Assembly: GCA_903813345.2 (NCBI GenBank)
Contig: CAIIXF020000001.1
Coordinates: forward strand, 25,482,001 to 25,546,000
Source: Owenia fusiformis
Lineage: Eukaryota
Length of the DNA stretch: 64,000 bases
Direction of reading: 5' to 3'
Program-made: the position numbers and the translations under genes
Notes under the pieces: model-generated
The model's database searches: none
What the model was told of the DNA's origin: nothing
Seen by the model: only the letters and a program-made list of their open reading frames with translations
Shown here: piece by piece, positions 1-64,000 of the stretch
How positions within the stretch are numbered: the stretch's first letter is position 1
Layout of the letters: each line of letters starts with the position of its first letter

Positions 1-3000
1 ACTGTTGTTGTAGCATCAGCTGCAGTTGTGTCAGCCACTGTAGTTGTAGCATCAGCTGCTGTAGTATCTGCCGTAGTTGCGTCAGCCACTGTAGTTGTGT
101 CAGCTACTGTTGTTGTAACATCAGCCGCTGTTGCATCAGCAACTGTTGTTGTAGCATCAGCTGCAGTTGTGTAAGCCACTGTAGTTGTAGCATCAGCTGC
201 TGTAGTATCTGCCGTAGTTGCGTCAGCCACTGTAGTTGTGTCAGCTACTGTTAGTGTAACATCAGCCGTTGTTGCATCAGCAACTGTTGTTGTAGCATCA
301 GCTGCAGTTGTGTCTGCCACTGTAGTTGTAGCATCAGCTGCTGTAGTATCTGCCGTAGTTGCGTCAGCCACTGTAGTTGTGTCAGCAACTGCTGTTGTAA
401 CATCAGCCGTTGTTGCATCAGCAACTGTTGTTGTAGCATCAGCTGCAGTTGTGTCAGCCACTATAGTTGTAGCATCAGCTGCTGTAGTATCTGCCGTAGT
501 TGCGTCAGCCACTGTAGTTGTGTCAGCTACTGTTGTTGTAACATCAGCCGCTGTTGCATCAGCAACTGTTGTTGTAGCATCAGCTGCAGTTGTGTCAGCC
601 ACTGTAGTTGTAGCATCAGCTGCTGTAGTATCTGCCGTAGTTGCGTCAGCCACTGTAGTTGTGTCAGCTACCGTTAGTGTAACATCAGCCGTTGTTGCAT
701 CAGCAACTGTTGTTGTAGCATCAGCTGCAGTTGTGTCAGCCACTGTAGTTGTAACATCAGCCGTTGTTGCATCAGCAACTGTTGTTTTAGCATCAGCTGT
801 AGTTGTGGCAACCACTGTACTTGTAGCATCAGCTACTGTAGTATATGCCGTAGTTGCGTCAGCCACTGTAGTTGTGTCAGTAACTGCTGTTGTAACATCA
901 GCCGTTGTTGCATCAGCAACTGTTGTTGTAACATCAGCCGTTGTTGCATCAGCAACTGTTGTTGTAGCATCAGCTGTAGTTGTGTCAGCCACTGTACTTG
1001 TAGCATCAGCTGCTGTAGTATCCGCCGTAGTTGCGTCAGCCACTGTAGTTGTGTCAGCAACTGCTGTTGTAACATCAGCCGTTGTTGCATCAGCAACTGT
1101 TGTTGTAGCATCAGCTGCAGTTGTGTCAGCCACTGTAGTTGTAGCATCAGCTGCTGTAGTATCTGCCGTAGTTGCGTCAGCCACTGTAGTTGTGTCAGCA
1201 ACTGCTGTTGTAACATCAGCCGTTGTTGCATCAGCAACTGTTGTTGTAGCATCAGCTGCAGTTGTGTCAGCCACTGTAGTTGTAGCATCAGCTGCTGTAG
1301 TATCTGCCGTAGTTGCGTCAGCCACTGTAGTTGTGTCAGCTACTGTTGTTGTAACATCAGCCGTTGTTGCATCAGCAACTGTTGTTGTAGCATCAGCTGC
1401 AGTTGTGTCAGCCACTGAAGTTGTAGCATCAGCTGCTGTAGTATCTGCCGTAGTTGCGTCAGCCACTGTAGTTGTGTCAGCAACTGCTGTTGTAACATCA
1501 GCCGTTGTTGCATCAGCAACTGTTGTTGTAGCATCAGCTGCAGTTGTGTCAGCCACTGTAGTTGTAGCATCAGCTGCTGTAGTATCTGCCGTAGTTGCGT
1601 CAGCCACTGTAGTTGTGTCAGCAACTGCTGTTGTAACATCAGCCGTTGTTGCATCAGCAACTGTTGTAGCATCAGCTGCAGTTGTGTCAGCCACTGTAGT
1701 TGTAGCATCAGCTGCTGTAGTATCTGCCGTAGTTGCGTCAGCCACTGTAGTTGTGTCAGCAACTGCTGTTGTAACATCAGCCGTTGTTGCATCAGCAACT
1801 GTTGTTGTAGCATCAGCTGCAGTTGTGTCAGCCACTGTAGTTGTAGCATCAGCTGCTGTAGTATCTGCCGTAGTTGCGTCAGCCACTGTAGTTGTGTCAG
1901 CAACTGCTGTTGTAACATCAGCCGTTGTTGCATCAGCAACTGTTGTTGTAGCATCAGCTGCAGTTGTGTCAGCCACTGTAGTTGTAGCATCAGCTGCTGT
2001 AGTATCTGCCGTAGTTGCGTCAGCCACTGTAGTTGTGTCAGCAACTGCTGTTGTAACATCAGCCGTTGTTGCATCAGCAACTGTTGTTGTAGCATCAGCT
2101 GCAGTTGTGTCAGCCACTGTAGTTGTGTCAGCTACTGTTGTTGTAACATCAGCCGTTGTTGCATCAGCAACTGTTGTTGTAGCATCAGCTGCAGTTGTGT
2201 CAGCCACTGTAGTTGTGTCAGCTACTGTTGTTGTAACATCAGCTGTTGTTGCATCAGCAACTGTTGTTGTAGCATCAGCTGCAGTTGTGTCAGCCACTGT
2301 AGTTGTAGCATCAGCTGCTGTAGTATCTGCCGTAGTTGCGTCAGCCACTGTAGTTGTGTCAGCTACTGTTGTTGTAACGCCAGCCGTTGTTGCACCTGCA
2401 ACTGTTGTTGTAGCATCAGCTGTAGTTGTGTCAGCCACTGTACTTGTAGCATCAGCTGCTGTAGTATCTGCCGTAGTTGCGTCAGCCACTGTAGTTGTGT
2501 CAGCAACTGCTGTTGTAACATCAGCCGTTGTTGCATCAGCAACTGTTGTTGTAACATCAGCCGTTGTTGCATCAGCAACTGTTGTTGTAGCATCAGCTGT
2601 AGTTGTGTCAGCCACTGTACTTGTAGCATCAGCTGCTGTAGTATCTGCCGTAGTTGCGTCAGCCACTGTAGTTGTGTCAGCAACTGCTGTTGTAACATCA
2701 GCCGTTGTTGCATCAGCAACTGTTGTAGCATCAGCTGCAGTTGTGTCAGCCACTGTAGTTGTAGCATCAGCTGCTGTAGTATCTGCCGTAGTTGCGTCAG
2801 CCACTGTAGTTGTGTCAGCTACTGTTGTTGTAATATCAGCCGTTGTTGCATCAGCAACTGTTGTTGTAGCATCAGCTGTAGTTGTGTCAGCCACTGTACT
2901 TGTAGCATCAGCTGCTGTAGTATCTGCCATAGTTGCGTCAGCCACTGTAGTTGTGTCAGCAACTGCTGTTGTAACATCAGCCGTTGTTGCATCAGCAACT

Positions 3001-12000: not shown

Positions 12001-15000
12001 TCAGCTGCAGTTGTGTCAACCACTGTAGTTGTAGCATCAGCTGCTGTAGTATCTGCCGTAGTTGGGTCAGCCACTGTAGTTGTGTCAGCTACTGCTGTTG
12101 TAACATCAGCCGTTGTTGCATCAGCAACTGTTGTTGTAGCATCAGCTGCAGTTGTGTCAGCCACTGTAGTTGTAGCATCAGCTGCTGTAGTATCTGCCGT
12201 AGTTGCGTCAGCCACTGTAGTTGTGTCAGCAACTGCTGTTGTAACATCAGCCGTTGTTGCATCAGCAACTGTTGTTGTAGCATCAGCTGCAGTTGTGTCA
12301 GCCACTGTAGTTGTAGCATCAGCTGCTGTAGTATCTGCCGTAGTTGCGTCAGCCACTGTAGTTGTGCCAGCTACTGTTGTTGTAACATCAGCCGTTGTTG
12401 CATCAGCAACTGTTGTTTTAGCATCAGCTGTAGTTGTGTCAGCCACTGTATTTGTAGCATCAGCTGCTGTAGTATCTGCCGTAGTTGCGTCAGCCACTGT
12501 AGTTGTGTCAGTAACTGCTGTTGTAACATCAGCCGTTGTTGCATCAGCAACTGTTGTTGTAACATCAGCCGTTGTTGCATCAGCAACTGTTGTGTAGCAT
12601 CAGCTGTAGTTGTGTCAGCCACTGTACTTGTAGCATCAGCTGCTGTAGTATCTGCCGTAGTTGCGTCAGCCACTGTAGTTGTGTCAGCTACTGTTGTTGT
12701 AATATCAGCCGTTGTTGCATCAGCAACTGTTGTTGTAGCATCAGCTGCAGTTGTGTCAGCCACTGTAGTTGTAGCATCAGCTGCTGTAGTATCTGCCGTA
12801 GTTGCGTCAGCCACTGTAGTTGTGTCAGCTACTGTTGTTGTAATATCAGCCGTTGTTGCATCAGCAACTGTTGTTGTAGCATCAGCTGCAGTTGTGTCAG
12901 CCACTGTAGTTGTAGCATTCAGCTGCTGTAGTATCTGCCGTAGTTGCGTCAGCCACTGTAGTTGTGTCAGCTAACTGCTTGTTGTAACATCAGCCGTTGT
13001 TGCATCAGCAACTGTTGTTGTAGCATCAGCTGCAGTTGTGTCAGCCACTGTAGTTGTAGCATCAGCTGCTGTAGTATCTGCCGTAGTTGCGTCAGCCACT
13101 GTAGTTGTGTCAGCTACTGCTGTTGTAACATCAGCCGTTGTTGCATCAGCAACTGTTGTTGTAGCATCAGCTGCAGTTGTGTCAGCCACTGAAGTTGTAG
13201 CATCAGCTGCTGTAGTATCTGCCGTAGTTGCGTCAGCCACTGTAGTTGTGTCAGCAACTGCTGTTGTAACATCAGCCGTTGTTGCATCAGCAACTGTTGT
13301 TGTAGCATTAGCTGCAGTTGTGTCAGCCACTGTAGTTGTAGCATCAGCTGCTGTAGTATCTGCCGTAGTTGCGTCAGCCACTGTAGTTGTGTCAGCAACT
13401 GCTGTTGTAACATCAGCCGTTGTTGCATCAGCAACTGTTGTAGCATCAGCTGCAGTTGTGTCAGCCACTGTAGTTGTAGCATCAGCTGCTGTAGTATCTG
13501 CCGTAGTTGCGTCAGCCACTGTAGTTGTGTCAGCAACTGCTGTTGTAACATCAGCCGTTGTTGCATCAGCAACTGTTGTTGTAGCATTAGCTGCAGTTGT
13601 GTCAGCCACTGTAGTTGTAGCATCAGCTGCTGTAGTATCTGCCGTAGTTGCGTCAGCCACTGTAGTTGTGTCAGCTACTGTTGTTGTAACGTCAGCCGTT
13701 GTTGCACCTGCAACTGTTGTTGTAGCATCAGCTGTAGTTGTGTCAGCCACTGTACTTGTAGCATCAGCTGCTGTAGTATCTGCCGTAGTTGCGTCAGCCA
13801 CTGTAGTTGTGTCAGCAACTGCTGTTGTAACATCAGCCGTTGTTGCATCAGCAACTGTTGTTGTAGCATCAGCTGCAGTTGTGTCAGCCACTGTAGTTGT
13901 AGCATCAGCTGCTGTAGTATCTGCCGTAGTTGCGTCAGCCACTGTAGTTTTGTCAGCAACTGTTGTTGTAACATCAGCCGTTGTTGCACCTGCAACTGTT
14001 GTTGTAGCATCAGCTGTAGTTGTGTCAGCCACTGTACTTGTAGCATCAGCTGCTGTAGTATCTGCCGTAGTTGCGTCAGCCACTGTAGTTGTGTCAGCAA
14101 CTGCTGTTGTAACATCAGCCGTTGTTGCATCAGCAACTGTTGTTGTAGCATCAGCTGCAGTTGTGTCAGCCACTGTAGTTGTAGCATCAGCTGCTGTAGT
14201 ATCTGCCGTAGTTGCGTCAGCCACTGTAGTTGTGTCAGCTACTGTTGTTGTAACATCAGCCGCTGTTGCATCAGCAACTGTTGTTGTAGCATCAGCTGCA
14301 GTTGTGTCAGCCACTGTAGTTGTAGCATCAGCTGCTGTAGTATCTGCCGTAGTTGCGTCAGCCACTGTAGTTGTGTCAGCTACTGTTGTTGTAACGTAAG
14401 CCGTTGTTGCACCTGCAACTGTTGTTGTAGCATCAGCTGTAGTTGTGTCAGCCACTGTACTTGTAGCATCAGCTGCTGTAGTATCTGCCGTAGTTGCGTC
14501 AGCCACTGTAGTTGTGTCAGCAACTGCTGTTGTAACATCAGCCGTTGTTGCATCAGCAACTGTTGTTGTAGCATCAGCTGCAGTTGTGTCAGCCACTGTA
14601 GTTGTAGCATCAGCTGCTGTAGTATCTGCCGTAGTTGCGTCAGCCACTGTAGTTGTGTCAGCTACTGTTGTTGTAACATCAGCCGCTGTTGCATCAGCAA
14701 CTGTTGTTGTAGCATCAGCTGCAGTTGTGTCAGCCACTGTAGTTGTAGCATCAGCTGCTGTAGTATCTGCCGTAGTTGCGTCAGCCACTGTAGTTGTGTC
14801 AGCTACCGTTAGTGTAACATCAGCCGTTGTTGCATCAGCAACTGTTGTTGTAGCATCAGCTGCAGTTGTGTCAGCCACTGTAGTTGTAACATCAGCCGTT
14901 GTTGCATCAGCAACTGTTGTTTTAGCATCAGCTGTAGTTGTGGCAGCCACTGTACTTGTAGCATCAGCTACTGTAGTATCTGCCGTAGTTGCGTCAGCCA

Positions 15001-45400: not shown

Positions 45401-45771
45401 ACACCCCAGTCACATTTCCTACGGTGACCTTGCGGTCTATCATTTCTGTGGCCAGTAACATTTCTACGCTCGCCGTGGAATTTCTGCGCTCTCATACTTT
45501 TGCAGTCACATTTCCCACGGCAGCCGCACGGTGAATTTTAAATTTCTGTTGATAAATAATACTTTTTTCATTTTATTTACATCGGGACAATTTATAAATG
45601 TTGTTCATAGTGCTAGGATGTTTCAAATGAAAAGTGATCGTGAAACATTAACAAATAATGATTCAATCTTGTTGAGCCAGTTGATTTCTACGGGGACCTC
45701 AGAAATGAACAAATATTATAACTCCGAGTTATAATTTCTACGGCGACCCTGCGGCAATGTGACTGGGGTGT
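45401..45771. mobile_element. MITE (371 bp) with perfect terminal inverted repeats; superfamily uncertain (TA or TWA target, PIF/Harbinger-like)
   Basis: ta|acaccccagtcacatt ... aatgtgactggggtgt|ta, plus several internal tttc(c/t)acgg subterminal motifs; no transposase ORF. Confidence 0.8.
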
Positions 45772-46150
45772 TAATATTCGATTTGTGCTTTAGAAAAAAT
45801 TAAAAAATAAAATAAATTAAAAAAGTTCAATGGGACAACGTACATTCGAGTTGACAACGTACACTTATGACTTTTTGGATTTAAGCCAAAACGTCGGTAA
45901 TACTTATTAAATCTTCAATGGTGTCGTTTAAAGAAAGATATTCTCATAAAAATATTCGACACTCTTGGATGACAGGGGAGGAAATGATCAAAGTAAATGT
46001 GTAATAAAACAACATTTTCCGACCAACCAATTTTATGGGTAGATTGACCATGAAAACAAATCGACCACAGATCGAAAATCTTTTAACATTATTAGAAAGT
46101 TAGAAGTCTTCCTACACGAATACACACGAAATCAAACATGAAATCCTTAA

Positions 46151-46987
46151 AGGCCCCATGTAAAGTTTAAACCACTTTGGCTTATATTGTAGTCTTACCC
46201 AATGTTATCAAAGTGTGATATGTGAAACTTTTTTTTTTAATTTCAAAAAGTGGTTTTTGATAGACTTTTTGTTCCAAAATTTGTGAATTTATTAAAAACC
46301 AACTTTTAGAGGTCACTCATATCTTCTAATTAGCCACAATTCATACCAATGCATAATGTACATCCTCCCTCCCATGTTTTTTGCCGAAAAAATTAAGAAA
46401 ATCGGTTGACAAACAAGCGAGAAATGAACTTATCAGTGCATGAAAATGGTTCTGAGAAAAATGCATTTCAAAATTTTAGTTCTCATAGAAACCAATGGTA
46501 CAATGATATCTAAAACATAATTTATTCTCCCTTTTAACCTGGTTAGACAATCAACATTGTTTTTTATGAAAGTCTAGCATATTTAGAAAAGATTGACATC
46601 GAAAAAAAAATTCAATTTTTTTTCAAAAAGTTTTTGTTACCTTAGTGACATGACTAATGTTTCAAAATATTTTTGATAAGCTAAAACATTGAAGTGGCCC
46701 ATTAAATATGACACTTTATTATTGAAATAGTGTGTCTTTTGTTCAATCTTTGCATTGGTGTTACAAATATAATCTTTTTTGAAATGCATTAAGAAATATT
46801 TGATGATTAAGAAATTTCAACTTTTTTTTGAAAAATGGCGGGAAATTTGAATATTTGAGAAATAAAATGCTCACAACTTTTTTTTCCAAAAAAAATTTTT
46901 GTTCAAAAATCTCAAAAATCACTTTTTAAGTCCTGACAAATAGTAAATGAATGATAAAAAAATATTTTCAAACTTTAGACGGGGACT
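46151..46987. mobile_element. Non-autonomous Kolobok-like DNA transposon (837 bp)
   Basis: TTAA on both sides (46147-46150 and 46988-46991). TIR aggccccatgtaaagttt vs reverse-complement agtccccgtctaaagttt (3 mismatches). Purine-purine termini with TTAA target are characteristic of Kolobok. Confidence 0.75.
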
Positions 46988-48455
46988 TTAATATATTCCT
47001 CAGATATTTTTTTAAAACCTACATCATTAATTTTGTCTTTACTTTAAATCGGTGACGCCGTACATCTAAAGTTAATAGTGACACCGTAAAAAGTGTACGA
47101 CGGTACATTTTGTCACGGTACGTTGTCGATGGTTAGACGTGAATATATTGATAATTAGAATTACGACTGATCTCTTGTATATATCTATATCTCTTACGAC
47201 TTATCTCTTGTATGTTTTGCAAACATGTTGGTGATACCCTACAGTTACTCAGTAAAACATTTCACAGAAACTGCTTTTTTATTGCTGAGAATATTTTTGT
47301 GAAAAAACGGTTGACTTTTTTTGAAACACTTGTAATAATTAAGACAATACATACATAAATTAAATCGATCGGTCTCCACACGATTTAGGAACTATTTTTT
47401 AGTAGGGGTCCACGAAACATACAATATGAGATCGTTCATTCATTCCTTCCTACGTTTTTTGGGTGTAGTCATTTTTATCACGCAGATGAATAAATACAAC
47501 TTGAAGCAATTAATAAAACATTCACACATTACATATTGAGTAAACAAAGTAAAACACAATAGCGTGGGTCATGACTTACACAAATTACAAAGTCTATACT
47601 TTAAAATCCTTACAATGCATGACAAGTTTTGAAAGCGAACTGCAAATATTGATTTTGGCAAGTTTTATCGGTACATGAGAAAACGAGCTTTTCTGCATTT
47701 TATAGAATAAAACCATTTCTTTTCTAGTCGCCCAATTTTGTAAATATGAATTTTTACGATGGTTTAATAACTTTAACAAATCAAACATCGATTTGAAATG
47801 GAATACACGTGGAAATGTGAACTCTTATAAAATCTTACGGATTTAGAGTTTCTGTGGAATTTCTACATTTTCTTGAAATTGTTTTCTTATTCTCCAATAG
47901 AAACAATTAATGTCGTGGTCACGTTTGATCTTGTCTGAAATCAGTTTGTTGTACTCGGACTCACAAAATAACTTTCAACGCATGATTTATCAACCGATCA
48001 TAACGTTTTCTCTCGTACCCTCACCTATTGGCGCGGGGATTTTATAATACGTACGTACTCACACTGGAACACCCTGACAAAAAGGGTATGGTCAGATACC
48101 GTTGTCCCAATGACGGCCACATGTCCGTTTAGTGCGTTTACGATTCGATTTTCATGAACTTTCTGTTAAATAGAGCACCTAGATTAAATTGCTTTGGTAC
48201 AACAATCACTCAAAGTGTCTTTATACTCATCATATAGCTAATAATGTTCCACCATCAAAATAAAGCCTTTAATTTAACGGATCGAAATAATATATTGGCC
48301 AACGGAGACAGTGGTAAATGTGGGTCAAATGAGTGGTAAAATCAGGATGACAACGGCATCAAGAAGGACAACGGTAATGTAACGCTAGAAGCATCGGATC
48401 TCGATGGTATGACTTTGAAACAATTAAATACATTTATGAATTCCCAAAATAATAG

Positions 48456-48573
48456 TTATTCCATTGAACAAAGTTCGGGGGATATAAAGTACGGCTCCGT
48501 CGGTACGTCCGTTCTTATGACGTTATGACGTTCCACCAACGCTATGTCGCAAGCCTGAGGAACCTGCTTTTTT
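48456..48573 (-). mobile_element. Short Helentron-associated (HINE/DINE-1-like) element remnant
   Basis: Minus strand reads gaacggacgtaccgacggagccgtactttatatcccccgaactttgttcaatggaataac: degenerate ACGG microsatellite, then a gaac-ttt-gttc stem-loop, similar to the end of the 48820-49036 element. Confidence 0.5.
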
Positions 48574-48819
48574 ATAGAATGTGGATTTTTAACTTACTAA
48601 TCAAAACTTATGGGTATTAATATCGGTATACCTATCATTGATATTACCACATATGTCTTTAATATTAATATGGGTTAAAACCTATCATCAAATACTGGAT
48701 ATGACAAATAAATAAAGTCAAATTATAATCTACCTACATTTTTCATGTGTTATTTTACGTTTTTTACCATAACTCCAAACGTAGTGGAACAATGTAGTTG
48801 AAACTTTATTGATTTTCGA

Positions 48820-49036
48820 ACAGAGCAAAAGTGTCACTTGGCTACAGCATTTTTTACGAAAGATGGCGGCCATTTTGAATTGGGCGGTCATAAGGCATAA
48901 GCCTATAAAATTTGAATCAAATCCGTCAATGGGTATTTGAGTTATTGCCCGGACAGACGGACAAACGGACGGACGGACAGACGGACGGACAAACAGCTTT
49001 CCTATATCCCTCTCGAACTTCGTTCGGTGGGATAAT
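48820..49036 (+). mobile_element. Helentron-associated non-autonomous element (HINE; DINE-1/Pearl-CvA-like architecture)
   Basis: (CGGA/CAGA)n microsatellite at ~48950-48992 followed by a terminal stem-loop atccc..cgaac-ttc-gttcg..gggat and an ATAA-rich end. The 5' boundary is approximate. Confidence 0.7.
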
Positions 49037-51844
49037 AATAGCCTTATTACTTTCACTGAAGGCATCAATTCTTCCGAACTGAAATTTTGGAAAGAACGGA
49101 TTTTGGATATAAAGAACATTGAAACAAATCAATAGACCTGGCATACAGACGAGCTTTTTCAGACTAAAGCTGATTGACAGAATCACAGCTGGCACAAACA
49201 CTATCAAGGTCTCATTGTGCAGCTTTGATATTGGATTTTAGACATGCATTTTGGAATTGTAATTACTCACATAATTTAGTTTAAATAATTTTCCGATATT
49301 ATAGCAATAAAAATATATAAAAATTATTATAAGAATAAATTCCTGTTGAAATACAATGTTAACGTTTTATTACTTTAGGCTAGAACATTTGAAATCGCCG
49401 ATATAATGAAGACATTTATAAAGATTTTGATCATCGTTTAACATGGCAATGTATCTTTGCTTACTAGCTTCGAACTCAAACTTTGCTTTTCGTTGCAATT
49501 TAGGATCAGCCCTATAACGGATATTGATCTCAGTAGAATGAGATATTTTCATATAGTTACAGGTATGAATCTCTGACAGTATCCATATCACATGTATCAC
49601 GCGCTCTGACTTTTAAGGCATACTTAAAAACAATATATAGAAACGTAGCATAATTTCGTGGAGTGCATAGGAAAAACATTAAGAATTCGACATCTTTATT
49701 CAATAATCACAGGTTAGAAAACACTACGAAACGTTCATCGACTAACAACAAAAAATACACCTACCTGTTTTTCGAACAAAAATACTCTAGGTGTATCTAC
49801 CCCCGATTATCGTTGAATAAAACCGCAATTCCCTGATTCCAAATAAAATATAGCGAATTTATATAATTGTCCCAAAAGCATTTTTCCCTAGATTGAACAT
49901 GTTGCCTCGTAAATGGACCTTCTCGGGGAACAATAGTGTTTGATTTCAATCATTTAATGTTTAACATATATTTTTATTACCCTGATTTTTTAAATGATGA
50001 TGCTGTCCCACGAAATGATAGCTCCTGGCAGGTTTAGAGAACGATACAAAAACATTCAAAGGGGGAGAATAGAAGGCTTTGAATAAATAAAACGATGGCC
50101 ATGAATTAACTTTTTATAACACAAATTATTTTGACATCGCTACAGTTGGTTGATTGATGATCATTTCAGTAACAAATTTAGCAGTCAATGCAATATGGCC
50201 TGAAATGCCTTCAAACAAAGTCATTAAGACTTATTTTTATATATGTCTACATGTAGTTCGCCGCGTGGTCAAACAAACCAGGCGCCTGTATTTTATGGGT
50301 GTCATATCTTTTCCCATCTGGTAATCCCCTGGATCTTCCTATGATTTTCTTTTCTTGAAAAGAGAGGTTCATCTCATACAACTTCGAGGCACTGGAACTC
50401 TGGGTACTAGGTTTTAGATGATTATGTCATCATTTATTGCGCAGCTCTATACATCCATAAGTATAATATTCTTACGTATAGACGGCGATTTATAAGAATA
50501 TCACACATGGACATAAAGCACACTGGTCTTTGACGCCCTCAAAATAGCACGTAATGCCCAATAAATGATGGCGTAATCAAACGCTTCATAAGTTATACGT
50601 TATACGGTAATGATCATGCTATAAGTGAGTTGCGAAATCTCTCTAATCATACAAAAATGGGCTATAGTCCAATGAGTTGAATCCTAAATAAGTTAGTAAG
50701 TTTGTTTGTTGTTTTTTCGGCTAGTAAGTAAGTTTTAATTATGTTCCATAATATTGCAGTTTATACAATTTAAATATTAAACCATGAATAATTTGTGACG
50801 TGAGTTAAAATACTTTATGGGAACCTTTATATTTCACAATGACAAAGTACATTTATAGAGAACAAATTAAAGTAGTAGCGTTCAAGATAATGCAAAAACA
50901 TTATTTTATTTCTTTAGAACTGCTTTAAATGTGTTTAGACCGACACTGTTCTCGATATAGGAAGTTTAATGTTTATTATGTTTAGTATAGAGAGGTTAAC
51001 TACTAAGTTCCCTTCTATGGGCGAATATAATGCATTTTATTTGCATTTATTTGACTAATTTAAAATTTGAATTAATTTATAGTTAAAATTATCACTCAGT
51101 TAGATCATTTTACTAATACTATTATAATTAATGAATTATAATTCATGCCCGTAGCCAGCTTTTGTTAAGGGGGAAGAGCTCAAACACCCCCATCCCCACC
51201 CCCATCCATACATAAAACTCCCCTCGTAATGTAAAGAGTATGCTTAACCAAACACTGGGGGTGATCCTGAAAACCCAGAGGTAAGGGGGCCCAAAAAATT
51301 CCGTAACAGTAATGCCATTTTGCTATCTAACTTGCCCGTTCTATATGGATAGGAGCAGATTTGGGCCCAAAAGTTAAAAAGGAAATCCTTCAAGAAGGCA
51401 AAAGAGGTAGGTCCACATTTTTAGGGACATCAGTGTGAGGGGCCCCGTTTTGACTACACACTCATAAATATCTTCGTAATGGCTCTCAACTTCCTTTAAT
51501 CTCTTGTTTAACCTCTGTGATGCTTTTAGAGTTGTATGTGTACACATTGTCTCTGAAATAGCCCCAAATACAAAATTCCGGGGGTTCATATTAGTTGATG
51601 TTGGTATGATTTGGCAATTATATGTTTATGTTTATGTTTATGTATCTTTATTTCCTTCGTATTAAGAAGAGCATATAACACAGTAATACAGTAATACTTG
51701 ATGACATAGTTATCTGATTGATTTACTTGGGTTACCCCTTTTGGCTCACCCTGTACATGTACGGTGTAGAATATGCTCAATGTTGACACCGTTAATTGTT
51801 TCTGCGAAGGCAGAGCTTGATAGAGAGAGAGACACACAGGTATA

Positions 51845-52459
51845 CATGGTGGACCAGAAAAACCTAATGCCCAAGTTAAAGATGAATATCATATGTTATA
51901 TGTTAAATCATGCCATGTATTATAATATATCATTTTAAAGAAAAATTATTTCCTAACAACATGACACCATTTGATTAAAGACCCGTTGTTTTCTTGTCGA
52001 GTAACAGGCTAAAATTGACCTCAGGGGTGTCATGAGCGACCAAAAAATTATTCACTTCAGATTTCAAAATTGCGGAAATACAGGGAAATTTGAACTTTGG
52101 CACTTTGAAAAGAGGCGCATTTATACAGGTTAAGTGCAAAATTCACCACCAATACATACATTTTGAATCTTTCAGTTGTGTCAATTGTGTATTACTCTTT
52201 AATACATTTGTAATGACTCAGTCAAGCATAACGAGTACAGCTGTGACTGCAATATGAAGTGAAATTGAGGAATTTTCATTTTTGATTTTTTGTCACTCAT
52301 GACACCAATCAAGGAAACAAAAATTTCTCTGTCAAATGCTGTCATATTTTAAGGAAATGATTTATTTTTAAAATGATACATAATGAATTGCATTGTTTAA
52401 GATAAATTATATGAATTATTTATCTTTAAACTTGGGTATTGGTTTTTTGGCCCACCTTG
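51845..52459. mobile_element. Non-autonomous Tc1/mariner-like element (615 bp)
   Basis: TA on both sides. ~40-bp imperfect TIR: catggtggaccagaaaaacctaatgcccaagttaaagat vs reverse-complement caaggtgggccaaaaaaccaatacccaagtttaaagat. Confidence 0.75.
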
Positions 52460-52715
52460 TATATAATATTTACCCTGAGTCTAGTTCTAAACTACGAAGA
52501 CTAAAACGAAGGTCCCTTTTAAGAAGCGGAGTCGAACGAATGCAAAAGGAAATAATATTGGAAGGCATAATAAAGAAGATTTCTTTGACACTGTATATGT
52601 CAATAGTTATCATGAAGACCAATAGCAATGTTCAAAATTGATTTTGCGTTTTGCGATTGCACGAATAAAGCTACTTGCCCGCATGGAAAATTCAGGCTTA
52701 AAATGAGATGTTTAA

Positions 52716-53111
52716 CCCTAATGTGTACATGGGGGTCAGATGACCCCCCTCCGGTTTTGATCCTATTTCTGGATCTAGGAAAGGTATTTACCCAAGGTTT
52801 TTAGTCCTAAAAAGGTAGATACTATATACATCTATCACATGCTGTACCCTTTTCTGGCGCGGCTAAAAAGCATTGTTGTTTTTGACTGAAAAAAGTTAAA
52901 AAAAAATACGCGAAAAAGCTCACCCCTGCGTTACTTTGACCTAGTTTTGACCCCATTTGACCTACTTTTTGAGATTTAGATACACCCCCTCGAGATTTTT
53001 GACTACTACTACAATTATGGTACCTTACCTTTGACTGTACCTCTTCAACTTTTGAAACGCCCCCCCCCCCCCCCGTCCATTAGTGTTATGAGAAATACGT
53101 TGTACACAGGG
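52716..53111. mobile_element. Possible piggyBac-like non-autonomous element (~400 bp)
   Basis: Left end ttaa|ccctaatgtgtaca; right end tgtacacaggg|taaa (reverse complement ccctgtgtaca). The TIR has a 3-nt gap and the right TTAA is imperfect. Confidence 0.45.
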
Positions 53112-53342
53112 TAAAATAGGCAATTGTGCAATCAAATTGTCCATTCTGTAATCTTCATTGGACAAACAAAATATGTGGATCTACCAACCTTAATAAGGTA
53201 TCACAAAAGTTAATAAGCTATCTCATTCTGGTCAGATTAATTTCCAGATATTTCAAGACTAATTTTGGTTTGATTGAAATACTTCAATCTACATGCCTCT
53301 ATATTCTGTCAGGGAAACGTTTCTAAAGTTACGGGGACTTAC

Positions 53343-53727
53343 CATTTGAACGTAAAACGCCATCTGTTGCTGATGAATAAATTCCAATTGACTTCTTTCC
53401 TAATTTCGGTTTCCTCAACCCAATTGGAGCTGACTTGACTAGATTTATATTTTTGGAGTAGCGGCCTTTCGGTAGAAGCTGATATTCCGAATTATGCCAT
53501 CGTTTATATATCTTGGTTTTCTCATGTTGAAAATGTGACGACTTGTTCAATGAATTATGATTTGTATAATCCAGTATTATGTCGGTCCATGGTTTTTGAT
53601 TAAAGTTAACATATCTTTGATTGTCAGTTTGTGTAAATTGTGATCGTTGCACTCTGCTTTGGCTTAAAAAACCAATCAGCCAAAATATTATAGATAATTT
53701 AGAAAACATTGACAAATTCAAATACAT
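53343..53727 (-). CDS. Gene A exon 1: signal peptide plus basic, cysteine-free pro-region
   Basis: ATG at 53727 (alternative ATG at 53709). MYLNLSMFSKLSIIFWLIGFLSQS has the n/h/c layout of a signal peptide. The exon is 128 codons + 1 nt and ends at a consensus G|GTAAGT donor whose phase matches the acceptor at 42250. Confidence 0.7.
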
Positions 53728-56719: not shown

Positions 56720-58060
56720 GTCCTTTTATCTCAAAAGGGATCCATGATATAAAAATTTTGAAACACATGACTTGTTTCTGCAATAGGATTACTGAGACAT
56801 ATTCCTGCGTTGATTTTATTGAGAATAATAAAATAGGTCAATTTTTTTTGCTCCATTTAGCATTTACGTCCTCATGAAAATGTGGATATCCAAATTGATA
56901 CACGTGAGTATCCACATTATGTGAGAAGCAAATGTTAAAGCTTCAGTATATGGCTGATATACACTGTACTATGAAATGCATATGATCATTTCAGATCTTC
57001 AGTGAAACAAAAATGTATTGCCAATGAATTATATAAAATAAAAACAAAAAATAGGACAGAATTTTGGGAGTTGCTCTCTATATCTGATTCTTAAAACAAG
57101 TAAAAATGCAAAACGCATTGTCAATTAATGCTCTGGTATCCACGAATTTGAAAGGACTCAGTCATAACATACGAAAATCATGCTGTCGTGTTGTTATGTC
57201 TGTTCCCTTTAGCAAAAACAAGTTACCAATAAATACGAAAAATAAAAAATAAAATATGACCAATGCATATCCGTACATGATGTTTCTAGTTAAACTAAAA
57301 TAAAGTTAAATCAGATAACCTCGATAACTCAATTCTAGAATTTCCCTGTCCATGGAAATCGTTAACTTATTGGATAACCACAGCGATCGCTGATGTATCT
57401 ATCGTTATTCGTTTTTCTTTTTTGATAACATATTTCATATAGAAAGTAGAATCAGGCGTAAAGCCTAATGGAATGCAACTTCACCATTTCAAGTATAAGA
57501 TCTCAAAAAGGATCCATTTGAATTTACTTAGTGTTTTAACAAATAAAATAGATACATTATCTTTGGTGACACCCTAATATAGCAGCAGTTTGGCATACAT
57601 AAAAATGTTGATATCCAAATAAATACATGCGGATATCCACATTTATTATATAAGTATTATTTTAACAAGCCAAAGAGTTAAGTCAAAATCTTCGACTATC
57701 CTTGATAGAGTACAGATAAGATTGTCTTGCCAATGAATACAGTCGTATCAGATGAAATATAAAAATTAATAAACATAACTGAATTTTTGGTAATTAATGT
57801 TGCTCTCTGTCTGATTCCCTCTTTAGATGAGTAAAAATACAAACAGGTGGTACAGTGAACAATGCTCTGGTATCTCAGGACAAAGCCATAACTGTTATAA
57901 GGAATACGAATCATACTGTCTACACTGTTTTGTCTGTCTTTATTTAACTAAACAGACGGCTACCAATAATACGAAAACGAAAAATGATAAGTAGCCAATG
58001 CATCAACCTAACATGATGTTTCTAGTTGAACTAGAACAGAATCAAGTTAGGACACCTAAC
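56720..58060. repeat. Old diverged tandem duplication (~730-770 bp offset) between genes B and A
   Basis: Collinear shared blocks: tctcaaaa.ggatccat (56729/57501), gatatccaaat (56885/57610), ttgccaatgaat (57018/57727), aatgctctggtatc (57127/57861), acatgatgtttctagtt (57275/58011). Confidence 0.8.
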
Positions 58061-58716
58061 AGTAAAACTCGTATCACTAGGCAGAGTGTGAATGTTTTTT
58101 CACCCCTGCTCTCCTCCAGAAATAAATATATGTGCATGATTTACCTTTTAGATGCCTTAATAGCGTTCAGCCTTCACACCTTCAAAAATACGTCACTTTT
58201 TCACAAGGAAACATCAAAAGGTTTTGCCTTGCAAAGGCCTTGCTATATGTTTTCTTGTGGATTTTTCAAAATCATAGTACAAGTATTATTTGGTTAAAGA
58301 AAAATACAGTCTTCTGATTCAAGTTACATCTCACAATTTTTTAATAAAAGTAATCCTGCGGTGTGATAGAGATCTGAAAAGCAATTTGGCGTTTAAAAGG
58401 TCAAATGTAGAATCCGTGGGAGAGGAGGTGAAAAAAAGCACGGAATAATCGCAGTCTCTATTATTATGATCTGAATCAAGTCTTTTCTCAAGCAATGAAT
58501 CTTTTCCAATTCATCTGCCTTCATAGAATCCATAGTAGTATTTTCCAAATTATTTTGTATCATATAATCCATGAATACACACCATTACTCATTTGGAATT
58601 TGCACTCAAAAACAACGAATGGCCATTCATATTTTTCAAATATTTTTTTTTAGTCTGATCAGGAACAATGAACCAAACGTTTTTGTATTTAAATAATGTT
58701 TATCATTTTCCTTAAT

Positions 58717-58722
58717 TTTATT
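58717..58722 (-). terminator. Candidate polyadenylation signal (AATAAA) for gene B
   Basis: AATAAA on the minus strand ~430 nt downstream of the 59152 stop; ATTAAA variants occur closer. Confidence 0.3.
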
Positions 58723-59008
58723 CGGCTAGAACATTCTAGTAAAAAGCGAATTAATTCTTGAAACTAATTAAAGTCCATGGAGTGACATTTGAGCAATGGT
58801 ATATAATGTAGGTATTGTTTTTTGCAGCGTCGACTTCGGTGAAAATCTTCTAAGACAAACTAAATATGAGACTCACTCTCTTTTTGAGATAACTGACTAT
58901 GTAAATCAAAGTAATATTTCTCGACTAGCATTTAATGCGGAAAAGCATTCTCCCCAATCAATCATTCACCATATCATGGAATACAGTTTAATTCATAGTA
59001 ACAATGCG

Positions 59009-59110
59009 TTACACATCATCATCTATTGTATAATTTTCTATATCATAATAATCCAAATTGGTGTCTTCACTTTCCTGGGGCGAAGCAGTATTATCCAAAT
59101 GAGGCCTCAA
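59009..59110 (-). repeat. Diverged duplicate of the last ~30 codons of gene B lying in its 3' UTR
   Basis: Translates as LDNTASPQESEDTNLDYYDIENYTIDDDV* versus the real C-terminus SDNTASPWESENTTLDYIVEDYALVDHDV*. The two stop codons are 143 bp apart. Confidence 0.85.
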
Positions 59111-59151
59111 TATGGTACAGTAAGGCCAAAAATCAAGTGACAGTTATTGTT

Positions 59152-62100
59152 TTACACATCATGGTCAACTAGTGCATAATCTTCCACTATATAATCCAAC
59201 GTAGTGTTTTCACTCTCCCAAGGCGAAGCAGTATTATCCGATTGTAAAGGCTGGGAGAATGGTAAATCCACCGAAGATGGGAACTGAACAGCAAATGGAC
59301 CAGTTGGAATAGGATATGACTCTGGATTCCACTCAATGGATGAGTCTGATGATTCTGTGGTACTCTCATATTCAGAATATCCACCACTTTCTTCCCAACT
59401 GTGATAAAAATTGTCGTATATTATAACTTCTTCATTTTCATGCTTTCGTCTTTTTCTGATAAGGAATATACATACGCCACAGCATAATGATGCAATTATG
59501 AAAATACCACCACCTGCTGCAACTGTACTTGTTAGAACAACACCAGCAAATTCATCTGTAATACCAGCATCAGGCGCATCAGGTAACCCTATCGTTGTAA
59601 TATTAGGAGTTGATGTATCAATTCTAAAGGTAGTTAAAGAGCCATTTGCAGTAGAAGTTGTTAGACCAGTAAGTGCTGTTGTAGCATCAACCATGGTAGT
59701 ATTTGCATATGTCGGCGCAGCATCAACTGTAGTTGTGTCAACAACTGTTGCTGTAACATCAGCCGATGTTGCGTCAGAATCTAGTGTTGTAGCCTCAGCC
59801 GTTCTTGTATCAAACTCTGTACTTGTGGATTCAGGTACTGTAATATCGGCTGCAGTTATGCCAGCCACTGTAGTTGCATCAGTAGTGTCAGTCGTAGTTA
59901 TATGAGCCACTGTAGTTGTGTCAGCAACTGTTGTTACAACGTCAGCCGTTCTTGCATCAGCTGCTGTAGTTGTAAAATAAGCTGCTGTGGTATCTGCGTC
60001 AGCCATTGTAGTTGTTTCAACAACGTTTGTTGTAATATCAGATGTTGTTGTGTCAGCCACTGTAGTTGTAGCATCAGCTGCTGTAGTATCTGCCGTAGTT
60101 GCGTCAGCCACTGTAGTTGTGTCAGCTACTGTTGTTGTAACATCAGCCGTTGTTGCATCAGCAACTGTTGTTGTAGCATCAGCTGTAGTTGTGTCAGCCA
60201 CTGTAGTTGTAGCATCAGCTGCTGTAGTATCTGCCGTAGTTGCGTCAGCCACTGTAGTTGTGTCAGCTACTGTTGTTGTAACATCAGCCGTTGTTGCATC
60301 AGCAACTGTTGTTGTACCATCAGCTGTAGTTGTGTCAGCCACTGTAGTTGTAACATCAGCTGCTGTAGTATCTGCCGTAGTTGCGTCAGCCACTGTAGTT
60401 GTGTCAGCTACTGTTGTTGTAACATCAGCCGTTGTTGCATCAGCAACTGTTGTTGCAGCATCAGCTGTAGTTGTGTCAGCCACTGTAGTTGTAGCATCAG
60501 CTGGTGTAGTATCTGCGGTAGTTGCGTCAGCCACTGTAGTTGTGTCAGCTACTGTTGTTGTAACATCAGCCGTTGTTGCATCAGCAACTGTTGTTGTAGC
60601 ATCAGCTGAAGTTGTGTCAGCCACTGTAGTTGTAGCATCAGCTGCTGTAGTATCTGCCTTTGTTGCGTCAGCCACTGTAGTTGTGTCAGCTACTGTTGTT
60701 GTAACATCAGCCGTTGTTGCATCAGCAACTGTTGTTGTAGCATCAGCTGTAGTTGTGTCAGCCACTGTAGTTGTAGCATCAGCTGCTGTAGTATCTGCCG
60801 TAGTTGCGTCAGCCACTGTAGTTGTGTCAGCTAATGTTGTTGTAACATCAGCCGTTGTTGCATCAGCAACTGTTGTTGCAGCATCAGCTGTAGTTGTGTC
60901 AGCCACTGTAGTTGTAACATCAGCTGCTGTAGTATCTGCCGTAGTTGCGTCAGCCACTGTAGTTGTGTCAGCTACTGTTATTGTAACATCAGCCGTTGTT
61001 GCATCAGCAACTGTTGTTGCAGCATCAGCTGTAGTTGTGTCAGCCACTGTAGTTGTAGCATCAGCTGCTGTAGTATCTGTCGTAGTTGCGTCAGCCACTG
61101 TAGTTGTGTCAGCTACTGTTGTTGTAACATCAGCCGTTGTTGCATCAGCAACTGTTGTTGTAGCATCAGCTGTAGTTGTGTCAGCCACTGTAGTTGTAGC
61201 ATCAGCTGCTGTAGTATCTGCCGTAGTTGCGACAGCCACTGTAGTTGTGTCAGCTACTGTTGTTGTAACATCAGCCGTTGTTGCATCAGCAACTGTTGTT
61301 GCAGCATCAGCTGTAGTTGTGTCAGCCACTGTAGTTGTGTCAGCTACTGTTGTTGTAACATCAGCCGTTGTTGCATCAGCAACTGTTGTTGCAGCATCAG
61401 CTGTAGTTGTGTCAGCCACTGTAGTTGTAGCATCAGCTGCTGTAGTATCTGCCGTAGTTGCGTCAGCCACTGTAGTTGTGTCAGCTACTGTTGTTGTAAC
61501 ATCAGCCGTTGTTGCATCAGCAACTGTTGTTGCAGCATCAGCTGTAGTTGTGTCAGCCACTGTAGTTGTAGCATCAGCTGCTGTAGTATCTGCCGTAGTT
61601 GCGTCAGCCACTGTAGTTGTGTCAGCTACTGTTGTTATAACATCAGCCGTTGTTGCATCAGCAACTGTTGTTGCAGCCTCAGCTGTAGTTGTGACAGCCA
61701 CTGTAGTTGTAGCATCAGCTGCTGTAGTATCTGCCGTAGTTGCGTCAGCCACTGTAGTTGTGTCAGCTACTGTTGTTGTAACATCAGCCGTTGTTGCATC
61801 AGCAACTGTTGTTGTAGCATCAGCTTTAGTTGTGTCAGCCACTGTAGTTGTAGCATCAGCTGCTGTAGTATCTGCCGTAGTTGCGTCAGCCACTGTAGTT
61901 GTGTCAGCTTCTGTTGTTGTAACATCAGCCGTTGTTGCATCAGCAACTGTTGTTTTAGCATCAGCTGTAGTTGTGTCAGCCACTGTAGTTGTAACATCAG
62001 CTGCTGTAGTATCTGCCGTAGTTGCGTCAGCCACTGTAGTTGTGTCAGCTACTGTTGTTGTAACATCAGCCGTTGTTGCATCAGCAACTGTTGTTGCAGC

Positions 62101-64000
62101 ATCAGCTGTAGTTGTGTCAGCCACTGTAGTTGTAGCATCAGCTGCTGTAGTATCTGCCGTAGTTGCGTCAGCCACTGTAGTTGTGTCAGCTACTGTTGTT
62201 GTAACATCAGCCGTTGTTGCATCAGCAACTGTTGTTGCAGCATCAGCTGCAGTTGTGTCAGCCATTGTAGTTGTAGCATCAGCTGCTGTAGTATCTGCCG
62301 TAGTTGCGTCAGCCACTGTAGTTGTGTCAGCTACTGTTGTTGTAACATCAGCCGTTGTTGCATCAGCAACTGTTGTTGCAGCATCAGCTGTAGTTGTGTC
62401 AGCCACTGTAGTTGTAGCATCAGCTGCTGTAGTATCTGCCGTAGTTGCATCAGCCACTGTAGTTGTGTCAGCTACTGTTGTTGTAACATCAGCCGTTGTT
62501 GCATCAGCAACTGTTGTTGTAGCATCAGCTGTAGTTGTGTCAGCCACTGTAGTTGTAGCATCAGCTGCTGTAGTATCTGCCGTAGTTGCGTCAGCCACTG
62601 TAGTTGTGTCAGCTACTGTTGTTGTAACATCAGCCGTTGTTGCATCAGCAACTGTTGTTGTAGCATCAGCTGTAGTTGTGTCAGCCACTGTAGTTGTAAA
62701 ATCAGCTGCTGTAGTATCTGCCGTAGTTGCGTCAGCCACTGTAGTTGTGTCAGCTACTGTTGATGTAACATCAGCCGTTGTTGCATCAGCAACTGTTGTT
62801 GCAGCATCAGCTGTAGTTGTGTCAGCCACTGTAGTTGTGTCAGCTACTGTTGTTGTAACATCAGCCGTTGTTGCATCAGCAACTGTTGTTGCAGCATCAG
62901 CTGTAGTTGTGTCAGCCACTGTAGTTGTAGCATCAGCTGCTGTAGTATCTGCCGTAGTTGCGTCAGCCACTGTAGTTGTGTCAGCTACTGTTGTTGTAAC
63001 ATCAGCCGTTGTTGCATCAGCAACTGTTGTTGTAGCATCAGCTGTAGTTGTGTCAGCCACTGTAGTTGTAGCATCAGCTGCTGTAGTATCTGCCGTAGTT
63101 GCGTCAGCCACTGTAGTTGTGTCAGCTACTGTTGTTGTAACATCAGCCGCTGTTGCATCAGCAACTGTTGTTGTAGCATCAGCTGTAGTTGTGTCAGCCA
63201 CTGTAGTTGTAACATCAGCTGCTGTAGTATCTGACGTAGTTGCGTCAGAAACTGTAGTTGTGTCAGCTACTGTTGTTGTACCATCAGCCGTTGTTGCATC
63301 AGCAACTGTTGTTGCAGCATCAGCTGTAGTTGTGTCAGCCACTGTAGTTGTAGCATCAGCTGCTGTAGTATCTGCCGTAGTTGCGTCAGCCACTGTAGTT
63401 GTGTCAGCTACTGTTGTTGTAACATCAGCCGTTGTTGCATCAGCAACTGTTGTTGCAGCATCAGCTGTAGTTGTGTCAGCCACTGTAGTTGTAGCATCAG
63501 CTGCTGTAGTATCTGCCGTAGTTGCGTCAGCCACTGTAGTTGTGTCAGCTACTGTTGTTGTAACATCAGCCGTTGTTGCATCAGCAACTGTTGTTGCAGC
63601 ATCAGCTTTAGTTGTGTCAGCCACTGTAGTTGTAGCATCAGCTGCTGTAGTATCTGCCGTAGTTGCGTCAGCCACTGTAGTTGTGTCAGCTACTGTTGTT
63701 GTAACATCAGCCGTTGTTGCATCAGCAACTGTTGTTGCAGCATCAGCTGTAGTTGTGTCAGCCACTGTAGTTGTAGCATCAGCTGCTGTAGTATCTGCCG
63801 TAGTTGCGTCAGCCACTGTAGTTGTGTCAGCTACTGTTGTTGTAACATCAGCCGATGTTGCATCAGCAACTGTTGTTGTAGCATCAGCTGTAGTTGTGTC
63901 AGCCACTGTAGTTGTAGCATCAGCTGCTGTAGTATCTGCCGTAGTTGCGTCAGCCACTGTAGTTGTGTCAGCTACTGTTGTTGTAACATCAGCCCTTGTT
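59152..64000 (-). CDS. Gene B 3' part: type I membrane-anchored mucin-like protein (TADV repeats, TM helix, 101-aa cytoplasmic tail), 5' end beyond the window
   Basis: ORF 59152..63957, open to the edge. Repeats degenerate at ~60050-59690, followed by N-glycosylation sequons (NTT, NGS, NIT), a hydrophobic segment FAGVVLTSTVAAGGGIFIIASLCCGVCIFLI (59550-59458), a positive-inside cluster RKRRK and an acidic tail with 7 Tyr. Confidence 0.88.
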   Translation of the reverse strand, partial: TRADVTTTVADTTTVADATTADTTAADATTTVADTTTADATTTVADATSADVTTTVADTTTVADATTADTTAADATTTVADTTTADAATTVADATTADVTTTVADTTTVADATTADTTAADATTTVADTTKADAATTVADATTADVTTTVADTTTVADATTADTTAADATTTVADTTTADAATTVADATTADVTTTVADTTTVADATTADTTAADATTTVADTTTADAATTVADATTADGTTTVADTTTVSDATTSDTTAADVTTTVADTTTADATTTVADATAADVTTTVADTTTVADATTADTTAADATTTVADTTTADATTTVADATTADVTTTVADTTTVADATTADTTAADATTTVADTTTADAATTVADATTADVTTTVADTTTVADTTTADAATTVADATTADVTSTVADTTTVADATTADTTAADFTTTVADTTTADATTTVADATTADVTTTVADTTTVADATTADTTAADATTTVADTTTADATTTVADATTADVTTTVADTTTVADATTADTTAADATTTVADTTTADAATTVADATTADVTTTVADTTTVADATTADTTAADATTTMADTTAADAATTVADATTADVTTTVADTTTVADATTADTTAADATTTVADTTTADAATTVADATTADVTTTVADTTTVADATTADTTAADVTTTVADTTTADAKTTVADATTADVTTTEADTTTVADATTADTTAADATTTVADTTKADATTTVADATTADVTTTVADTTTVADATTADTTAADATTTVAVTTTAEAATTVADATTADVITTVADTTTVADATTADTTAADATTTVADTTTADAATTVADATTADVTTTVADTTTVADATTADTTAADATTTVADTTTADAATTVADATTADVTTTVADTTTVADTTTADAATTVADATTADVTTTVADTTTVAVATTADTTAADATTTVADTTTADATTTVADATTADVTTTVADTTTVADATTTDTTAADATTTVADTTTADAATTVADATTADVTITVADTTTVADATTADTTAADVTTTVADTTTADAATTVADATTADVTTTLADTTTVADATTADTTAADATTTVADTTTADATTTVADATTADVTTTVADTTTVADATKADTTAADATTTVADTTSADATTTVADATTADVTTTVADTTTVADATTADTTPADATTTVADTTTADAATTVADATTADVTTTVADTTTVADATTADTTAADVTTTVADTTTADGTTTVADATTADVTTTVADTTTVADATTADTTAADATTTVADTTTADATTTVADATTADVTTTVADTTTVADATTADTTAADATTTVADTTTSDITTNVVETTTMADADTTAAYFTTTAADARTADVVTTVADTTTVAHITTTDTTDATTVAGITAADITVPESTSTEFDTRTAEATTLDSDATSADVTATVVDTTTVDAAPTYANTTMVDATTALTGLTTSTANGSLTTFRIDTSTPNITTIGLPDAPDAGITDEFAGVVLTSTVAAGGGIFIIASLCCGVCIFLIRKRRKHENEEVIIYDNFYHSWEESGGYSEYESTTESSDSSIEWNPESYPIPTGPFAVQFPSSVDLPFSQPLQSDNTASPWESENTTLDYIVEDYALVDHDV
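60050..64000. repeat. 141-bp tandem repeat array B (~28 units in window), same family as array A
   Basis: Same 47-codon unit with array-specific consensus differences (ADTTTAD, frequent ADAATTV, ADVTTTV). Confidence 0.97.

Follow-up and report, generated by a model that had tools for sequence, protein, structure and literature searches.

The stretch of Owenia fusiformis DNA analyzed here (the window: 64,000 nucleotides, G000:C1:25482001-25546000; positions without a prefix are window coordinates) holds the start of one giant repeat gene, gene A, and the end of another, gene B, both built on the same 141-base-pair (bp) unit. We think it likely that the products of these two genes, and of a third, gene C, found elsewhere in the genome, are giant mucin-like proteins of the glycocalyx, with type I membrane topology and of an orphan, domain-less kind. 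As part of the same account, the unit that A and B have in common with two neighboring mucin genes, D and E, most likely spread by ectopic conversion or transfer, and errors of assembly most likely explain the frameshifts in A and B.

The ends of A and B that lie outside the window were both found in the flanking sequence. Beyond array A there is a transmembrane (TM) segment and tail 94% identical to that of gene B, and ahead of array B there is a signal exon 69% identical to exon 1 of gene A. A genome search with the gene B tail gave five matches: B itself, the tail that closes array A, a third gene on contig C6 (gene C), and a pair of decayed copies beyond the gene A stop. The same search with gene A exon 1 gave three (A, B, and C), and searches from both ends of gene C returned A, B, and C again. 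Gene C is the more distant member, with a tail 71% and a head 48% identical to those of B. The initial sequence-only reading had described a family of two genes; A and B were confirmed, but the family has this third genomic member.

The layout proposed in that reading, which put the array at more than 10,000 amino acids (aa), was seen in all three genes: signal-like segment, basic pro-region, furin-type site, an acidic Thr-rich array, TM segment, and Tyr-bearing tail. Each gene has a phase-1 first intron and an RFRR motif near the start of exon 2. The heads reach an 11-aa hydropathy peak of 2.45-2.58 at residues 8-21, which is signal-like by hydropathy, and they contain no Cys. At the other end, each has a single TM segment (19-aa hydropathy of 2.3-2.5) followed by RKRRK and a tail of 92-101 aa, with 3-4 Cys per C-terminal frame, mostly within the TM segment. 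Gene C gives one 12,909-aa frame after removal of intron 1 and six array introns (four of 156 bp and two of 155 bp), and this frame stays open only when those six repeated GT-AG introns are spliced out. These six phase-1 introns (C6:29130525-29141940) are nearly identical and spread when exons were duplicated together with their introns; one of the duplicates, of 4,013 bp, is exact. The gene C stop lies 8 codons earlier than in A and B.

Ratios of nonsynonymous to synonymous substitution rates (dN/dS; Nei-Gojobori) among A, B, and C were 0.15-0.21 for the tails and 0.39-0.52 for the heads. Synonymous divergence (dS, by the same method) was 0.18 between the A and B tails, 0.45 between their heads, and 0.76-0.91 to C. 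Heads and tails of the three genes are under purifying selection. Because of the matching heads and tails, the spliced frame of C, and the low dN/dS, we conclude that A, B, and C are real, constrained coding genes.

Period analysis placed the 141-bp unit at 1-41313 and from about 59900 to 64000. Both arrays lie on the minus strand and their consensuses differ at 4 of 141 bases, in agreement with the earlier claim of two same-strand genes with a common unit. The order it gave, with the gene B C-terminus followed 5.4 kb away by the gene A N-terminus, was also borne out. The features of the window are as follows:

1..41313, minus strand: homogeneous part of array A, with a 141-bp (47-aa) Thr/Ala/Asp/Val unit; the array extends to C1:25457000 and the TM segment and tail end at C1:25456266
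12594..13115, minus strand: seam with all off-frame indels of gene A, between exact 5,561-bp copies at 7033-12593 and 13116-18676
41314..41442, minus strand: 129-bp AT-rich insert within array A, in frame and stop-free, with a polypyrimidine-TTTAG 3' end in its sequence
41443..42208, minus strand: 5' margin of array A, decayed to about 80% identity with the consensus unit
42209..42220, minus strand: RFRR, a furin-type R-X-[K/R]-R site (consensus as in PMC2174952) directly before array A; B and C have one too
42250..53342, minus strand: gene A intron 1, 11,093 bp, GT-AG, phase 1, with dispersed repeats; splicing restores the frame, and the phase is equal in A, B, and C
53343..53727, minus strand: gene A exon 1, a signal-like hydrophobic segment and then a basic Cys-free pro-region, with phase-1 donor GTAAGT; paralogous exons exist in B and C
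56754..59151, minus strand: probable 3' untranslated region (UTR) of gene B, covered by contigs of sequencing runs X1 and X2
59009..59100, minus strand: decayed copy of the last ~30 codons, 3' of the gene B stop, from sequence comparison
59152..59457, minus strand: predicted cytoplasmic tail of gene B by translation, 101 aa, 7 Tyr, 21 Asp plus Glu, YDNF and YALV motifs, stop at 59152-59154
59458..59514, minus strand: gene B TM segment by hydropathy (19-aa value of 2.46), with a CCxxC cluster, then RKRRK
59590..64000, minus strand: 3' terminal part of array B, including its decayed margin and the stem; the full array reaches C1:25592417

Exon 1 of gene A starts with ATG, and after residue 24 it has 19 Lys plus Arg against 6 Asp plus Glu, with an isoelectric point of 10.3. 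Exon 2, which is 68 kb as assembled, begins at 42249 and reads EKYAPHKFYKRFRR before it enters the array, with KRFRR kept in frame after splicing. The predicted mature N-termini after RFRR are EAVDNKTT in gene A and DVTVADTT in gene B. The signal exon of gene B lies at C1:25600666-25601086, and its exon 2 is 51 kb as assembled. Decayed repeats of the last 30-35 tail codons stand behind the stop in both genes, one in B and three in A (C1:25455700-25456260).

The 129-bp insert of array A, which like the indel seam went unmentioned in the sequence-only reading, is single-copy in a genome search. It has an acceptor-like end but only weak donors, and 7.6% of intron windows of this length are free of stops. 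It may be either a weak intron or a translated hydrophobic stretch. We rejected contig joints as a sign of its splicing; the joints carry extra letters, and ordinary repeat units account for them.

For transcripts, four of 14 listed runs were mapped on 41200-59900; X1 and X2 come from two studies and are presumed, as a guess, to be RNA, and no run that the search named as containing the query is annotated as RNA. Their contigs cover 56754-59825 with 0-3% differing letters (97-99% identity). The unique bins at 53056-54303 and 49312-49935 were empty in both runs, although empty bins are not proof of absence. This pattern fits a gene B transcript whose 3' UTR would span about 2.4 kb, and the gene B 3' end is probably expressed, in a condition-specific manner. 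Where the sequence-only reading asked for transcripts of either gene, the B tail and downstream region are covered by presumed RNA, but A exon 1 is almost uncovered. Many RNA reads that stem from other genomic loci pile up on the dispersed repeats in gene A intron 1 (43000-49300), and at 48688-49311 some of these reads are stranded.

The 141-bp unit is not private to A and B. Two further mucin genes that carry it lie 0.5-0.8 Mb from the window, so that A, B, D, and E fall within 0.93 Mb:

C1:24680323-24836040, plus strand: gene D, a model of a SEA/EGF tethered mucin, with a candidate 20-aa signal exon at C1:24665888
C1:24887105-24976354, plus strand: gene E, a MUC4-type mucin, with Pfam domains behind a 47-aa array

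The gene D model has 18 GT-AG exons with consistent phases that join 42,923 codons without a stop, and its largest exon is 61,478 bp (C1:24770132-24831609). The order is array-SEA-EGF four times, then a fifth array, SEA, a Pro/Thr/Ser stretch, EGF, SEA, two EGF, TM segment, and tail. Among its six SEA-like modules, Pfam SEA scored above the cut-off in two of the three C-terminal halves tested, and EGF was confirmed. In the two largest of its five arrays, exact internal duplicates do not exceed 1,185 bp, and gene D shows no off-frame spacing. Gene E, read exon by exon, has three array exons with open frames of 5,553, 4,603, and 7,982 aa (about 18,100 aa). Within 1 kb after the arrays it has NIDO, AMOP, VWD, C8-3_MUC4, EGF, a weak SEA match, and a TM segment. 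Neither gene E nor the 3' part of gene D gave a match to profiles of the A/B/C heads and tails.

An exact genome-wide search with a 35-base motif of the unit gave 1,097 matches, of which 666 were in A and B, 241 in D, 165 in E, and 25 elsewhere. The 25 strays (24 reverse and 1 forward) lie outside the regions analyzed, and a further array may exist. There were none in C1:25232001-25432000. Consensus units of 11 array parts from the four genes differed from one another at 0-4 of 141 bases, and those of A and B are at least as close to D and E as they are to each other. In the last exon of paralogue C, no window had fewer than 39 mismatches to the unit; by this comparison the true paralogue appears to lack it. 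The A and B units show 1 synonymous difference, where the divergence of the flanks predicts 6.6 or 14.2 (P = 0.010 and P < 0.0001). The commonest unit of A, three changes from the common consensus, has 87 copies in A, 28 in E (27 of them in the third array), and 0 in B and D. The commonest unit of B has 268 copies in B and 0 in A, D, and E.

These comparisons suggest that the unit came to be common to non-homologous mucins most likely via ectopic gene conversion or repeat transfer. Repeated conversion or re-seeding among A, B, D, and E would be the simplest account. The edges of arrays A and B consist of decayed units (75-80% identity), which means that A and B have had the unit for a long time and that renewal of the array interiors came afterwards. 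Since the unit precedes SEA, EGF, NIDO, AMOP, and VWD in D and E, it ties the A/B family to the classical mucins. The sequence-only reading had seen none of these domains. That holds for the unique parts of A, B, and C, but the unit fills nearby genes that carry them.

The long array frames of A and B are 41% Thr, 30% Ala, 16-17% Asp, 11% Val, and 0.1% Pro, and Thr makes up 40-50% of the tandem-repeat exons. The 11,793-aa frame of gene B has zero Pro, and past position 25 it has only 3 residues other than Thr, Ala, Asp, and Val. The description of the genes as proline-free therefore applies to this frame but not to the A model, which has 40 Pro in 20,762 aa. The array keeps its frame and composition only; single residues are without visible constraint. 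Because of this, unit-variant dN/dS was excluded from the support for coding.

Searches for relatives of the unique parts gave no known family. Pfam returned no family at its cut-off for five pieces of A/B/C, in which NIDO-AMOP-VWD was likewise absent, and the array joins the TM segment directly. A Peptidase_M91 match in these pieces was rejected as sub-threshold (E value of 0.19). PDB sequences gave no significant match to the unique peptides, and one at an E value of 0.94 was rejected. A hidden Markov model profile of the tail had 0 matches against 1.84 billion representatives. In word-index searches, the tail profile matched 0 of 3,618 candidates among proteins of 255-2000 aa, and the head profile matched 0 of 197 among proteins of 70-245 aa, longer proteins not being searched with the head. 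In a protein atlas the best scores were 0.87 for the tail (MUC1 fragments at 0.86-0.87) and 0.83 for the head, all below 0.9 and taken as leads only. Profiles of the SEA and EGF modules of gene D matched nothing in the A/B or C regions, and the Cys-rich polymerizing domains (VWD-C8-TIL) of gel-forming mucins were not found in A, B, or C. AlphaFold2 on the head (3 sequences) gave a mean pLDDT (predicted local distance difference test) of 47.5, with a low-confidence helix at 2-23 and no confident fold.

As a control, the TM segment and tail of gene D, a canonical neighbor, matched 0 of 2,034 in the same kind of search. Since that tail also matched nothing, the blanks for A/B/C are weak evidence of lineage restriction. 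The unique peptides matched no Pfam family, solved structure, or protein, as the proposal of an undescribed lineage-specific family would have it, and none of the three outcomes that the sequence-only reading named as counting against it came about. The absence of known relatives stands, but the coverage of this animal in databases is doubtful and the repeat is not private. Our search of published work, largely outside subscription journals, found no account of these genes or of a coding repeat common to non-homologous mucins.

The coding spans equal about 22,789 aa for A and 17,228 aa for B, sizes that are provisional. Array A is open for 9,769 aa (12974-42280), meets the off-frame indels in the seam at 12594-13115, and then runs for 4,199 aa to the window edge. 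The 5,561-bp pair flanking the seam is the only exact duplicate of at least 1.2 kb in the array. Without one 6,083-bp block, gene A reads 20,762 aa to the tail with no stop; because the removed block contains the indels, this open frame results by construction. The off-frame changes of gene B are three duplications of a single base. They fall in a stretch of 2.8 kb (within C1:25554239-25557146) that is 12-15 kb away from the unique 3' flank. Where the distance between anchors departs from a multiple of 141, the frame is lost in 3 of 82 instances for A and 3 of 10 for B, and in none of the 178 for D or the 65 for E. The arrays thus vary in length while keeping the frame. As the indels of A all sit in the seam of its sole large exact duplicate, the frameshift clusters in A and B look most likely to be assembly errors.

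From the gene structure, signal-like segment, RFRR, array, TM segment, tail, selection, and frame keeping, all of which can be read from the DNA itself, we propose the following course for the proteins. By analogy, each would enter the secretory pathway with type I insertion, and Thr, about 40% of residues, would be O-GalNAc (N-acetylgalactosamine)-glycosylated. A furin-type convertase would remove the basic pro-region, as for PSGL-1. The array, in which tryptic sites are nearly absent, would then form an acidic bottlebrush of 2-8 micrometers overall; if each residue is assumed to add 0.25-0.36 nm, gene A would give 5-8 and gene B 2-6 micrometers. The TM cysteines may be acylated or dimer-linking. 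The YxxF/YxxV and YxN motifs of the tail, going by their general functional meanings, may act in traffic or in signaling and adaptor binding. Without a SEA module there would be no self-cleavage site. The proteins would likely serve to coat an exposed epithelium, as a barrier or for lubrication.

Several observations weigh against this account. As assembled, the A frame stops at aa 9,888 and the B frame at aa 11,927. Gene B also has a perfectly periodic run of 30,315 bp (C1:25559177-25589491) whose length is possibly wrong; these identical units are either a very recent expansion or an assembly product, and without them gene B would be about 7,100 aa. The longest exact stretch between genes is only 211-382 bp, with no long conversion tract. 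Pro, part of the usual Pro/Thr/Ser repeat definition, is nearly absent, and dN/dS among unit variants is 1.0-1.8, with no amino-acid constraint visible. The A tail is nearer to the B tail than the A head is to the B head, so the date of the A-B split is blurred. On the transcript side, the RNA nature of the runs covering B is a guess, RNA-seq (RNA sequencing) runs X12 and X14 (6 and 12 in 100 reads used) gave no tail depth and less than 1x in the repeat bin, and no exon 1-exon 2 joint was present among the contig joints listed.

If the frameshifts were real in this individual, A and B would be truncated secreted Thr/Ala/Asp/Val polymers (about 9,900 and 11,900 aa) or decaying genes, and only C would be tethered. 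The early stops are what one would then see, and unit variants do evolve as if neutral. However, the indels are clustered and are mostly single-base duplications or losses, with those of A within one duplication seam; the tails downstream keep a dN/dS of 0.15; and D and E together show 0 of 243 off-frame length variants. We regard real frameshifts as rather unlikely. The likeness of the units might instead have arisen without ongoing exchange, either from an old common origin under selection or from cross-talk of reads or polishing during assembly. The age implied by the decayed edges, the short exact tracts, and the suspicious perfect run in B would all suit this. Against common origin, synonymous sites are also common to the genes while unit variants are unconstrained, and the derived three-change unit occurs in A and E but not in B. 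Cross-talk is disfavored because it would not have spared the private 268-copy unit of B, and because misplaced reads would leave kilobase-long exact matches, of which none exist. Likeness without exchange therefore seems unlikely to us.

A different reading of the same tethered proteins is that the array is an unglycosylated or phosphorylated polyanion for cation binding, adhesion, or the building of tubes or matrix. Its Asp content and near lack of Pro and Ser fit, and the basic pro-region could pair with the acidic array. This is quite improbable, given that 40-50% Thr in tandem repeats with decayed edges is as in mucin repeats (PMC13345508) and that genes of the SEA/EGF and MUC4 types have this unit as their repeat domain. 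Finally, the arrays could be a non-coding satellite. No single substitution turns an ACN, GCN, GAY, or GTN codon into a stop, so an open frame could be a by-product of repeat codons that cannot become stops in one step, and within-array dN/dS is about 1. Yet three genes join the array in frame to signal and TM/tail exons that are conserved, indels keep the frame, and C is open only via splicing of its repeated GT-AG introns. We find a satellite barely credible, and our preferred account remains that of giant tethered mucin-like proteins with exchanged units.

By sequence, A, B, and C would behave as tethered mucins with a plan closest to MUC21/MUC22 and PSGL-1, and they would not belong to the SEA, MUC4, gel-forming, or PSGL-1 families. 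MUC21 and MUC22 have proline-poor repeats. Like MUC21 (epiglycanin), the three genes have Thr-rich tandem repeats, a stem, a TM segment, and a tail, and PMC11199685 lists no folded module for MUC21. Like the "orphan" MUC22, which has that status for want of orthologues (PMC9417175), they stand alone. No sequence similarity was found; the arrays here have 290-480 units or 13,000-22,000 aa against 28 repeats in MUC21, the residues are Thr/Ala/Asp/Val and not Ser/Thr, and a basic pro-region of 130 aa and a furin site are present. PSGL-1 (SELPLG), as described in PMC2174952, has a signal peptide, a propeptide ending in RX[R/K]R, a repeat stalk of variable length, and a conserved TM segment and tail; the RFRR of A, B, and C agrees with that propeptide end. 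However, its stalk is 250-280 aa, its sulfotyrosines and T[D/E]PP after the cleavage site are lacking in A and B, its Cys is juxtamembrane whereas the CCxxC here is inside the TM segment, and no homology was found.

In size class and in having a single huge repeat exon, the genes resemble human MUC12, MUC16, MUC3A, and MUC17. Gene D is of this SEA type, but A, B, and C have neither SEA nor EGF by Pfam and gene D profiles. The extreme size of A and B has a precedent, since MUC12 alleles, with the largest human coding exon, reach 23,080 aa according to PMC13345508, which also states that across human mucin repeats Pro falls as Ser/Thr rises. Gene E has MUC4-type modules behind its 47-aa array; A, B, and C are without those modules, and the repeat alone is common. 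For the exchange itself, the nearest case is SmPoMuc of Schistosoma mansoni, in which repeat units have become alike across separate mucin loci, an effect attributed to gene conversion (PMC2576457). That is one family with introns the most homogenized, whereas here coding units cross three unrelated architectures and paralogue C is excluded. MUC20 copies likewise show repeat homogenization within a family (PMC13345508). The gene D model (42,923 aa plus its candidate signal exon), a gene model from one assembly, falls between titin and PKZILLA-1, the latter 45,212 aa and about 25% larger than titin (bioRxiv 10.1101/2024.01.29.577497).

Other sequences near these genes are noted for completeness. 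Around the cluster there are mobile elements, namely a LINE-type (long interspersed nuclear element) endonuclease/reverse transcriptase at C1:25446076-25449763 and a Mutator transposase at C1:25624437-25625744 (both Pfam), and between D and E there are frames that are gag/pol-like by appearance (C1:24859558-24871762). At C1:27161652-27186087 there is another giant Thr-rich gene with three other repeats, unrelated to the 141-bp unit and with no head or tail match. Beside gene C (C6:29163784-29166799) are a short-chain dehydrogenase (Pfam) and a proline-rich exon without a Pfam match, which we take to resemble splicing factor SF3A2.

Homogenized mucin repeats are known within families; across non-homologous mucins they were not found in the literature searched, which was of limited scope. 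Mammalian orphan mucins have been proposed to grow their own repeats (PMC9417175). If our account is true, orphan mucins could instead arise when a secreted or membrane gene takes or shares the ready-made repeat of unrelated mucin neighbors. Arrays such as that of B would offer a natural scaffold without proline that uses four amino acids over more than 11,000 residues, a simple system in which to ask whether dense O-glycosylation and extension of the brush require proline. Annotation with repeat masking is prone to overlook such genes. In its boldest form, which for us is evenly balanced between true and false, one 47-residue O-glycan scaffold is kept near-identical over orphan, SEA/EGF, and MUC4-type mucins by continuing ectopic conversion in the 0.93-Mb cluster, with repeats moving between genes, and the ~42,900-aa member is real, longer than titin, and the largest animal protein that we found described. 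The cluster would also point to invertebrate glycocalyx layers on the micrometer scale, and one of its members would be a candidate for the longest polypeptide of any animal.

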